A stretch of 64,000 nucleotides of DNA from an uncultured Oscillospiraceae bacterium (GTDB taxonomy: Bacteria; Bacillota; Clostridia; Oscillospirales; Oscillospiraceae), in assembly GCA_910589155.1 (NCBI GenBank), contig CAJURY010000004.1:29157-93156 (forward strand), written 5' to 3'. The notes beneath the pieces are model-generated. The model worked only from the letters and a program-made list of their open reading frames with translations. It did no database searches and was not told the origin of the DNA. Below are positions 13,903 through 14,930 of this stretch, one piece after another. Every line of letters starts with the position of its first letter. Position 1 is the first letter of the stretch. Made by a program: the position numbers and the translations under genes.

Positions 13903-13993
13903 TATTTTTTATAGGTGCTAAAAAATAAAGCTTGTTTTCTGAATTCATTTTCTAAAACTTGACGTTTCTTTGTTTCCGTGCTATAATATGCAT

Positions 13994-14093
13994 AGAAAAA
14001 GGGCGCTGCCGATAGACGGTTTTGCTCCCACGATTCATTACTTCAAAAGAAGTAACCGCATTCTGTAGGAGGAAGGGCGGTTACTTCTTTTTT
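13994..14093 (+). ncRNA. Candidate antitoxin sRNA 1 (promoter-to-terminator unit, ~100 nt)
   Basis: TTGACG (13959-13964), 17-nt spacer, TATAAT (13982-13987). Terminator AAAAGAAGTAACCGC-N17-GCGGTTACTTCTTTTTT (14045-14093). No RBS-preceded ORF. The 3' end overlaps the last codons of the convergent peptide gene. Confidence 0.4.
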
Positions 14094-14173
14094 ACGATCT
14101 GATAAATCAGACTGGCAAAGGAAATGAGTACAAGAATGAGCTGAAAAAGCTCGTTGTATGTAACTGCATTCAC
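14081..14173 (-). CDS. Small hydrophobic peptide, type I toxin / holin-like-toxin candidate (30 aa)
   Basis: GGGGGTGG RBS, 5 nt, then GTG. Peptide (M)NAVTYNELFQLILVLISFASLIYQIVKKK. Own promoter TTGACA (14355-14360 rc), 17 nt, TAAGAT (14332-14337 rc), and a ~150-nt structured leader. Confidence 0.45.
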   Translation of the reverse strand: MNAVTYNELFQLILVLISFASLIYQIVKKK

Positions 14174-14426
14174 TTTTACCACCCCCTTCCATACGGACAG
14201 GGGGCAAGAAGCGTCACCCCCTGTAAAGGGAGCTTAACCGCCTGCCGCAGTATGCTGCGCGGCAAGGAAATACCGCCGCTTAGCGCACCGCAAACCTTAT
14301 GGCAACGCCCGGTTCCAAAGGAACCGGGTTTATCTTACCATTTCCGCTTTGTTTTGTCAAAGTCTTTCTCAAAACTCTCTCTTTCTCATCCTTGACGTTT
14401 CTTTGTTTCCGTGCTATAATATGCAT

Positions 14427-14519
14427 AGAAAAAGGGCGCTGCCGATAGACGGTTTTGCTCCCTAGTTGGTTCAAAGAAGTAACCGCTTAGTTTGGAGCCT
14501 GGGCGGTTATTTCTTTTTT
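14427..14519 (+). ncRNA. Candidate antitoxin sRNA 2
   Basis: TTGACG (14392-14397), 17 nt, TATAAT (14415-14420). Terminator 14473-14519. The promoter and first ~35 nt lie within a perfect 72-nt duplicate (14391-14462 = 13958-14029). Confidence 0.4.
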
Positions 14520-14593
14520 GCTATGCTGTAAATCTGGGTAGCAAAGGCAACAAGCATCGTAACAAAAGCGTAAAGCTCTGCATGAGATACCAT
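14507..14593 (-). CDS. Small hydrophobic peptide, type I toxin candidate, paralog (28 aa)
   Basis: AGGAGGGGGTGG RBS, 5 nt, then ATG. Peptide MVSHAELYAFVTMLVAFATQIYSIAKKK. Promoter TTGACA (14781-14786 rc), 16 nt, TAAAAT (14759-14764 rc). The leader shares the 5' hairpin ACCCGGTTCC-NNN-GGAACCGG and the GGCGGTTA-GCTCCCTT block with copy 1. Confidence 0.45.
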   Translation of the reverse strand: MVSHAELYAFVTMLVAFATQIYSIAKKK

Positions 14594-14930
14594 TTATACC
14601 ACCCCCTCCTATGTAGTCGGGGACAAGAAGCTGCCCCCGCGAAGGGAGCGTAACCGCCTACCGTGGTGCGCCGCGCAGCGAATCAGATTCCTCTGATTGC
14701 CGGTGGCAATCACACCTTAAACTATATGGCAACGTCCGGTTCCATTGGAACCGGGTTTATTTTATCATTTTTCCCTACGCTGTCAAAAGCTTTTCAAAAT
14801 CGTTATAAAACTTTCTTTCCTCCGTTTTCCTGTTTTAGACAGTTTCCTAATTTTGCTCCTTTCTTACCGGAAAGAAATCTTGTAAAATGGAGATACTTTC
14901 TTTAAAATATACGTGAAGGAGCGTGAACAA

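Follow-up and report, generated by a model that had tools for sequence, protein, structure and literature searches.

The main finding of this study is that a short intergenic locus of an uncultured Oscillospiraceae bacterium (GCA_910589155.1, contig CAJURY010000004.1) very probably consists of two tandem TxpA/BsrG-like (Pfam Hol_Tox) modules of the type I toxin-antitoxin (TA) kind. The locus spans positions 13949-14799 of the window, the whole 64,000-nucleotide (nt) stretch of DNA that was analyzed. This reading, which had been put forward in the original prediction made from the letters alone, is supported by the anatomy of the modules, their conservation, selection on the coding frame, family membership, pairing of the Shine-Dalgarno (SD) sequence, cassette variation between strains, and the prophage association of relatives. 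In particular, the short open reading frame (ORF), its SD, the leader, the convergent promoter, and the common terminator are kept in >100 related modules, which is the opposite of the outcome that the original prediction had named as refuting it, namely that relatives would fail to keep the short ORF and its SD.

The two modules (13959-14360 and 14392-14786) are adjacent direct repeats with a period of 416-433 nt, as established by repeat analysis, and they share one layout, as had been claimed. On the plus strand, a promoter precedes a small RNA (sRNA) taken to be the antitoxin; on the minus strand, a convergent promoter precedes a leader and the short toxin ORF. The predicted features are the following, in order along each module.

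13959..13987, plus strand: sRNA-1 promoter, TTGACG-17-TATAAT with an upstream TG (promoter scan; equivalent in 108/123 family modules).
13994..14097, plus strand: putative antitoxin sRNA-1, ~104 nt and ORF-less, in which a 5' hairpin domain and a variable linker precede the terminator (fold z = -3.6).
14001..14029, plus strand: conserved 5' hairpin block of sRNA-1, GGGCGCUGCCGAUAGACGGUUUUGCUCCC (invariant in strain variants and a sister lineage).
14045..14091, no strand assigned: bidirectional terminator 1, common to sRNA-1 and toxin-1 mRNA (15-nt arms, 100% complementary; the right arm codes KKK-stop).
14081..14173, minus strand: toxin A ORF, (M)NAVTYNELFQLILVLISFASLIYQIVKKK, 30 amino acids (aa), GTG start (ORF list and family-profile match).
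14179..14186, minus strand: toxin A SD, GGGGGUGG (read from the sequence; paired in predicted folds).
14226..14233, minus strand: toxin A leader anti-SD block, GCUCCCUU (95.6% of cells paired in the nested A:D/B:C structure described below).
14309..14327, minus strand: toxin-1 mRNA 5'-terminal hairpin, CCGGUUCC-UUU-GGAACCGG (repeat analysis, pattern count, and fold).
14332..14360, minus strand: toxin-1 mRNA promoter, TTGACA-17-TAAGAT (promoter scan).
14040..14326, minus strand: predicted toxin-1 mRNA, ~287 nt (fold z = -6.3).
14392..14420, plus strand: sRNA-2 promoter, TTGACG-17-TATAAT (promoter scan).
14427..14522, plus strand: putative antitoxin sRNA-2, ~96 nt (fold z = -4.3).
14473..14516, no strand assigned: bidirectional terminator 2 (repeat and promoter/terminator scans).
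14507..14593, minus strand: toxin B ORF, MVSHAELYAFVTMLVAFATQIYSIAKKK, 28 aa, ATG start (ORF list and family-profile match).
14599..14609, minus strand: toxin B SD, GGAGGGGGUGG (pairs with GCUCCCUUC in the minimum free energy [MFE] fold).
14642..14649, minus strand: toxin B leader anti-SD block, GCUCCCUU (sequence, MFE fold, and module alignment).
14736..14754, minus strand: toxin-2 mRNA 5'-terminal hairpin (repeat analysis, pattern count, and fold).
14759..14786, minus strand: toxin-2 mRNA promoter, TTGACA-16-TAAAAT (promoter scan).
14468..14753, minus strand: predicted toxin-2 mRNA, ~287 nt (fold z = -3.6).

The four promoters that had been proposed, two on each strand, were all recovered. 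The promoter scan of the region yielded 7 promoter-like sites versus 2.5 +/- 1.6 in shuffles; all four module promoters carry an upstream TG, and those of the sRNAs match 11 of 12 consensus positions in both modules. The plus-strand transcripts, described in the original prediction as ORF-less RNAs of ~95 nt ending in a terminator, are predicted to be ~95-104 nt long, contain no conserved ORF, and fold into a small 5' hairpin and a strong terminator. On the minus strand, a ~150-nt leader with a conserved 5' hairpin had been proposed; this hairpin (CCGGTTCC-NNN-GGAACCGG) has exactly two occurrences in the 64 kb versus 0.01 expected, and the sRNA block likewise has exactly two, versus 0 expected. 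The two transcripts are predicted to overlap by 52-54 nt, comprising the last ~5 codons of the toxin ORF, its stop codon, and the common terminator. A convergent 3' overlap as in txpA/RatA or bsrG/SR4 had been anticipated, and it agrees with the T1TAdb description, in which the TxpA, SprG, and BsrE/G/H families have a like layout (PMC8594479).

Both toxin ORFs were found where peptides of 28-30 aa, with a single transmembrane (TM) helix and a KKK end, had been called (14081-14182 and 14507-14593); the first is 33 aa as listed and 30 aa when counted from the GTG at 14173, directly after GGGGGUGG. The substitution pattern in related modules clearly points to an ORF that evolves as a protein-coding gene under purifying selection. 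Among 105 family ORF pairs with 75-99% identity, differences are distributed 345/136/804 over the three codon positions, and single-nucleotide codon changes in frame are 588 synonymous and 219 non-synonymous, a ratio of 2.68 versus 0.22 and 0.08 in the other two frames; the pairs are not mutually independent, and the direction of the coding signal is unambiguous. Overlapping 20-aa ORFs (MQ...) present in both modules were rejected as coding, being without conservation and having the low out-of-frame ratios. A leader-peptide/attenuator reading was likewise rejected because no minus-strand gene lies downstream and the unit ends in a terminator facing the convergent helix-turn-helix (HTH) gene.

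The likeness of the peptides to the "holin-like toxin" family (Pfam Hol_Tox, PF16935), suggested originally from the start of the peptides and checked here by Pfam search, holds at the level of the family, without a direct match for the window peptides themselves. Three of the first 10 family members score above the Hol_Tox gathering cut-off of 23.3 bits (24.6, 25.3, and 31.3 bits), and E <= 0.05 is reached by 21 of the 40 family peptides compared with the model (best 5e-8), making this the sole recurrent Pfam match; two members are labeled "putative holin-like toxin [Oscillospiraceae bacterium]" by NCBI, and such annotations were equated with the TxpA family by Fozo et al. 2010 (PMC2887945). 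NCBIfam PepG1 (NF041589) gives sub-threshold family matches (best E = 1.7e-6, 27.6 bits versus a cut-off of 70). When a family profile built from 37 related peptides, with the window lineage excluded, was run against the 1654 six-frame segments of the window, peptide A ranked 1/1654 (E = 2.8e-12, 43 bits) and peptide B 2/1654 (E = 6.1e-5, 19.5 bits), the next match having E = 0.04. These top ranks, together with the Hol_Tox matches of their relatives, argue that A and B are divergent members of a Hol_Tox/TxpA-like clade, a membership that is transitive, via the family profile. The family has the Hol_Tox-type architecture (<60 aa, a short polar N terminus, a single TM helix, and a basic C-terminal cluster): its peptides are 23-38 aa long, at least 2 K are found in the last 4 residues of all 60 unique peptides, and an acidic residue at positions 4-10 is present in 56/60. 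Family SDs are G-rich and lie 5-9 nt ahead of the start codon. The window peptides gave nothing significant against PHROG, and the 33-aa toxin A ORF is not on record by exact look-up.

Another significant finding is that related modules are widespread in gut metagenomes and viral contigs. The pattern that opened the family is a dual-constraint element in which the KK-stop of the peptide lies inside the terminator arms. It occurs in at least 120 metagenome contigs, mostly from the human gut, and in 28 viral contigs, from which at least 123 related modules were parsed, with 60 unique peptides (consensus MVTYS[DE]LFQFCLVIIGIIGLFIQANKKK) and 74 unique sRNAs. The convergent promoter TTGACA-16/17-TATA[AC]T is present in 108 of the 123 modules listed, and the sRNAs, 88-113 nt long, are all built alike, with an A-rich 5' end followed by a hairpin block, then a variable linker, and lastly a terminator. 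Several family peptides are each found on at least 1000 contigs. Close relatives of toxin A occur in L040 and other loci, 5' hairpins similar to that of the window's toxin mRNA in L061 and L063, and tandem pairs in L026, L111, and L165, with a spacing of ~390-430 nt. Three viral contigs place the module upstream of a large serine recombinase, at a distance of 250-350 nt, and have Xre- and LexA-type repressors in the vicinity. The position of relatives beside prophage integrases suggests a role in element maintenance or phage defense.

Other searches were less productive. As an exact pattern, the sRNA block gave 0 matches in the viral, species-representative genome, and metagenome collections, though it is present in Joint Genome Institute (JGI) contigs L002 and L014, so that not everything in the contig index is covered by the metagenome collection. 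Two viral matches of the 5'-hairpin pattern fall inside high-GC coding sequence, and the one genome match of the leader block lies inside an 892-aa ORF of a Duncaniella metagenome-assembled genome (MAG); both were set aside as chance. No match to module 1 was found by blastn in the plasmid and phage GenBank collections.

Several arrangements of modules within the family were also observed. Two same-orientation modules ~3.4-3.6 kb apart flank a gene for a 921-aa protein with S-layer homology (SLH) domains (L039:759-4199), an arrangement found in seven contigs (L039, L062, L079, L083, L107, L133, and L141). Extra "sRNA-only" units—a 5' block and a terminator, at intervals of ~100-140 nt—are arrayed in tandem with the sRNA of the module itself in L155, L164, L038, L039, L059, and L062, and in the viral contigs L155 and L164 they are just upstream of the module. 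The U-tail is missing in some of these units, which suggests dimeric or read-through antitoxin transcripts. In another viral contig (L144:1461-3101), a 546-aa protein with DUF4041, T5orf172, and MUG113 domains is directly beside the module and an S24 LexA-like repressor adjoins; this neighborhood is a prophage accessory region.

At the RNA level, the original prediction proposed that a GCTCCCTT block in the leader pairs with the SD. Sequestration of the SD stands as a prediction, and the specific pairing is one of two nearly equally supported foldings. In 28 non-redundant leaders, we found four G-rich/C-rich elements, A to D, of which D is the SD. Pairing A:B with C:D, the choice of RNAalifold, leaves 93.4% of cells paired with a covariation score of 0.297, reached by 15/500 shuffles, and the alternative in which A:D encloses B:C, which is the folding of the original prediction, pairs 95.6% of cells with a score of 0.337, reached by 1/500. 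These helices are G-run/C-run, so the two foldings are not cleanly separable; in either of them the SD is predicted to be sequestered, with modest support from covariation. In the inner stem of the common terminator, 16-17 sequences have double-sided changes; the terminator arms are fixed by the search pattern and carry no evidential weight. MAFFT plus RNAalifold on the whole sRNA recovered the terminator alone, with the indel-rich 3' half of the 5' hairpin misaligned. Folding each sequence separately instead gave a hairpin for the sRNA 5' domain in nearly all of 65 variants (mean z = -1.97, 88% below -1).

In the mechanism that we propose by analogy with txpA/RatA, bsrG/SR4, and bsrE/SR5, a sigma-A-type promoter would drive a stable, structured toxin mRNA of ~287 nt, with a protective 5' hairpin and a ~150-nt leader in which C-rich anti-SD segments would hold the G-rich SD in a helix and keep the full-length mRNA poorly translated. 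Its product would be a peptide of 28-30 residues whose short polar N terminus includes an acidic residue and which has a single TM helix and ends in KKK. The convergent promoter would yield an antisense RNA of ~95-104 nt ending in the bidirectional terminator; because that terminator is common to both transcripts, the RNA would be perfectly complementary to the last ~5 codons, the stop, and the 3' untranslated region (UTR) of the mRNA (~53 nt). The first RNA-RNA contact would be made via the variable terminator loops, as in the B. subtilis systems of like layout (PMC6562991), and would be followed by an extended duplex; since these loops are variable and mosaic, they may set antitoxin specificity. 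RNase III would then cut the duplex and the toxin mRNA would be degraded, with SD sequestration possibly reinforced. When the labile antitoxin drops, the peptide would enter the membrane and cause growth arrest or lysis. We infer transcription, RNase III dependence, toxicity, and biological role from the Bacillus subtilis, Enterococcus faecalis, and Staphylococcus aureus systems (PMC6562991, PMC2887945, PMC8594479).

An apparently new feature of these modules is a leader-like domain in the antitoxin. The toxin leader and the sRNA 5' domain bear one same-sense element, roughly GCGCUGCC-loop-GGCAG/ACGG-UUnGCCCC, whose C-rich tail is the leader's anti-SD. Same-sense local alignments of leader and sRNA have a score of 24.8 when the pairs are cognate, 18.8 when they are non-cognate, and 12.3 when the sRNA is shuffled, and 0/5000 permutations reach the observed cognate score in a 62-member non-redundant set; kinship among modules inflates this significance and leaves its direction unchanged. 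The order of these scores argues that the two copies are homologous and evolve in concert within a module. It is conceivable, although we regard it as doubtful, that the antitoxin mimics the cis-repressor of the toxin, either as a second anti-SD brought to the ribosome-binding site (RBS) after terminator docking or as a competitor for a common RNase or RNA-binding factor. Equally viable explanations of the likeness are that the inverted copies undergo gene conversion, or that they have a common role in 5' stability or protein binding. Mimicry, if true, would be a mode not described for TxpA/BsrG-type systems, and the sRNA and toxin leader would define a very abundant RNA family, absent from Rfam, in gut Oscillospiraceae and serine-integrase prophages.

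A rival view, compatible with a type I TA system but unlikely, is that the antitoxin works chiefly via this conserved 5' domain, its C-rich anti-SD copy masking the SD and start codon of the toxin after docking or purely in trans. There are precedents for RBS masking in SprA1AS on sprA1 and RNAII on fst, and both Fst/RNAII and SprA1/SprA1as make contact outside the overlap according to T1TAdb (PMC8594479). Between the C-run of the sRNA and the SD region, a helix of up to 10 contiguous base pairs is possible (e.g., -23.2 kcal/mol in L032), but any C-run pairs with any G-run SD, and across the family this pairing is on average only ~0.9 standard deviations better than in shuffles and the same for cognate and non-cognate partners. 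In the window modules, trans pairing between the toxin 5' UTR/RBS and the 5' block of the sRNA was rejected, RNAduplex energies being no better than those of dinucleotide shuffles (fraction at or below observed 0.71-0.94). The invariance of a 32-nt block where promoter, linker, and ORF diverge, its retention across the family, and its covariation with the cognate leader are in line with a masking role, but the concerted variation could also stem from the inverted-copy gene conversion or the common 5'-end role mentioned above.

Variation between strains bears on both the type I TA reading and the perfect 72-nt identity between the modules (13958-14029 = 14391-14462) that the original prediction had attributed to gene conversion or constraint. 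Repeat analysis confirmed the identity, as part of an 81-nt repeat (13949-14029 / 14382-14462) with 96% identity and all 3 mismatches within the first 9 nt. Syntenic contigs of other strains (>20) reveal a hypervariable intergenic space that contains toxin types A and B as in the window, A alone, B alone, or a third type, C, alone (MSTSEVFQLCLVIIGVISLVLQANKKK). An alignment of four distinct module versions reveals an invariant sRNA 5' block, terminator arms, leader anti-SD block, and 5' hairpin, the most diverged parts being the ORF core, SD region, sRNA linker, and terminator loop; strain variants of toxin B carry Q20L and A16T. Module 2 of L002 combines toxin B with a type C terminator loop, a diverged sRNA promoter spacer, and an identical 32-nt transcribed block. 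The diverged spacer in L002 argues that the promoter identity in the window is due to recent gene conversion, and the invariance of the 32-nt block in all strains and a sister lineage, together with its retention across the family, argues for constraint. On this comparison, the 72-nt identity reads as both at once: recent gene conversion of the promoter and constraint on the 32-nt sRNA 5' hairpin block.

The sister lineage, in which the flanking protein is 67% identical, keeps the sRNA block exactly and has a C-type ORF. Some 125 nt with two hairpins, one of them terminator-like, lie between leader and ORF (L006:551-677; also L007-L011), and the SD is changed from GGGGGG to CAGGGC, with the antitoxin promoter and 5' block intact. 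This locus may therefore be a silenced toxin with a retained antitoxin. In one further strain (L014:2451-2869), glutamate replaces a valine of the type C peptide halfway along the TM helix (CLVII to CLEII), which may be inactivating. The window leader itself contains, at 14255-14300 on the minus strand, a degenerate copy (…TTTGCG…GGTATTTCC) of a proximal extended -10 promoter (TGGTATTCT-like). In most family members, the toxin mRNA is driven from this proximal promoter, in place of which the window lineage has ~75 extra nt, the 5' hairpin, and the distal consensus promoter.

Several observations weigh against two functional TxpA/BsrG-like modules and temper our confidence. The window peptides have no Hol_Tox or other Pfam/NCBIfam match even at E <= 10, and peptide B is a divergent member, at 19.5 bits to the family profile. 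Searches of Rfam gave no relevant match for the window region at a threshold of E <= 1, and nine family loci gave none at E <= 0.1. Most of the covariation in the leader consists of G-C to G-U changes in G-run/C-run helices and is thus weakly discriminating, and the overlap of ~53 nt between sRNA and mRNA is mostly terminator stem and shorter than in RatA or SR4. Finally, the lost SD and terminator-bearing insertion of the sister lineage indicate that some copies may be decaying.

We consider it improbable that the peptides are non-toxic small membrane proteins with a regulatory or structural function, such as a membrane-complex modulator or ComI-like inhibitor, tuned by the antisense RNA. Some members do resemble NCBIfam ComI (NF052249), a 30-aa competence inhibitor, but weakly (E = 0.0007) and far under the cut-off (19.3 versus 55 bits), and the family matches best and most often to Hol_Tox, the TxpA family, whose characterized members are toxic. 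In Fozo 2010, candidates of the YhzE-2 type are reported to have an antisense RNA but no detectable toxicity, and the toxicity of TxpA to be species-specific (PMC2887945); the locus, moreover, is in the core chromosome near oriC rather than in a mobile element. Against this, translational silencing, tandem duplication, strain-variable cassettes, and the integrase-proximal position of relatives are hallmarks of type I TA systems. Least probable of all is that the window copies are decaying, non-functional leftovers of prophage-derived modules: peptides A and B are below Pfam detection, the ancestral proximal promoter position reads TATTTC without the conserved final T, the sister lineage and the V-to-E strain show damage of the kinds described above, and the neighboring HTH_26 gene resembles phage repressors, but in every strain examined the two ORFs are undamaged and have strong SDs and consensus distal promoters, the antitoxin promoters are near consensus, the RNA elements are invariant across strains where flanks vary, and peptide A scores 43 bits against the family profile.

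The type I TA reading invites comparison with several known systems. One is txpA/RatA from the B. subtilis skin element, whose toxin belongs to Hol_Tox and has the same polar N terminus, single TM helix, and basic C terminus, and whose type of toxin gene is often missed in annotation. The TxpA homologue EF3263 in E. faecalis has an antitoxin of ~110 nt that overlaps the 3' UTR, and tandem repeats and a C-terminal charge have also been reported (Fozo 2010, PMC2887945). However, TxpA has 59 aa, RatA 222 nt, and the overlap is longer, compared with peptides of 27-32 aa, an sRNA of ~95 nt, and an overlap of ~53 nt that is essentially the common terminator here; the RNAs match no Rfam antitoxin in sequence or structure, and the hosts are Oscillospiraceae, not Bacilli. 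Similarities to bsrG/SR4 and bsrE/SR5, from B. subtilis prophages SPbeta and P6, include small toxins (38 and 30 aa), a toxin mRNA of 255-294 nt with the SD buried in a helix, a 3'-end antitoxin overlap, first contact via terminator loops, and prophage association. In these systems, conserved RNA scaffolds carry different toxin ORFs by strain or species (PMC6562991), a parallel to the swapping of types A, B, and C. The main differences are that SR4 and SR5 are 163-180 nt long, with four stem-loops and an overlap of >100 nt, that there is no sequence similarity at the RNA level, and that those antitoxins have not been described as bearing a same-sense copy of the toxin leader.

In S. aureus, sprG/SprF (PepG1) and sprA1/SprA1AS are convergent with a 3'-end overlap, and some members of the present family weakly match PepG1. 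The non-overlapping 5' domain of SprA1AS, which masks the RBS, is a precedent for a possible role of the sRNA 5' domain; unlike there, trans action of this domain is without statistical support here. In addition, sprG1 encodes two peptides, of 31 and 44 aa, and PepG1 matches are far under the 70-bit cut-off. Finally, CD2517.1/RCd8 and other modules of Clostridioides difficile are type I TA systems of Clostridia, often in prophages, with hydrophobic toxins and charged C termini (PMC6563280), but their toxins have 34-59 aa and no sequence similarity to the TxpA type (PMC6563280), and their RNA layouts differ.

How much of this is new? Systems of this kind are known and Pfam already contains the toxin family, and for the window the result mostly confirms a call that was correct, the system there being ordinary, though unannotated. 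According to a 2019 review, homology searches in clostridia yielded almost no TxpA-like toxins, with C. bolteae as the only source, and clostridia are almost entirely without homologues of known toxins, save for C. difficile's own unrelated families (PMC6563280). In the library searched, no relevant paper was found that names both "type I toxin" and Oscillospiraceae. Given that the TxpA-like sequences of the review are only in C. bolteae, the abundant branch in Oscillospiraceae and prophages is apparently undescribed, and its sRNA and toxin leader, although conserved and well delimited, are absent from Rfam. The lead in the window opened onto a large TxpA-like branch, with at least 123 modules in uncultured gut Oscillospiraceae and prophages. 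Annotators of a dominant gut lineage gain two concrete models, one for RNA and one for peptides; the presence of toxin types A, B, and C on a single scaffold, with mosaic terminator loops, forms a natural allelic series usable for the study of antitoxin specificity; and the co-varying leader-like antitoxin domain is a specific, testable mechanistic lead.

The genomic setting of the window modules is that of a core chromosome near oriC, with dnaA/dnaN ~4 kb downstream. The gene order is rlmL-like, yegS-like, groES/groEL, HTH_26 gene, modules, a gene for a 347-aa protein, TetR, FGGY kinase, and dnaA/dnaN. The 347-aa flanking protein has no Pfam match, and the NCBI name of the flanking protein points to an Oscillospiraceae bacterium MAG. 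The HTH gene beside the modules is Xre-type. An inverted repeat of 25+25 nt at 13591-13640, 96% complementary and without a spacer, is directly upstream of this HTH_26 gene (13633-13902) and overlaps its start, and is probably its operator or autoregulatory site; the same repeat gave spurious microRNA-precursor matches in Rfam. Elsewhere in the window, the local guanine-cytosine content dips to 0.435 at 4001-6000 and to 0.455 at 32001-34000, versus ~0.54 in the remainder.

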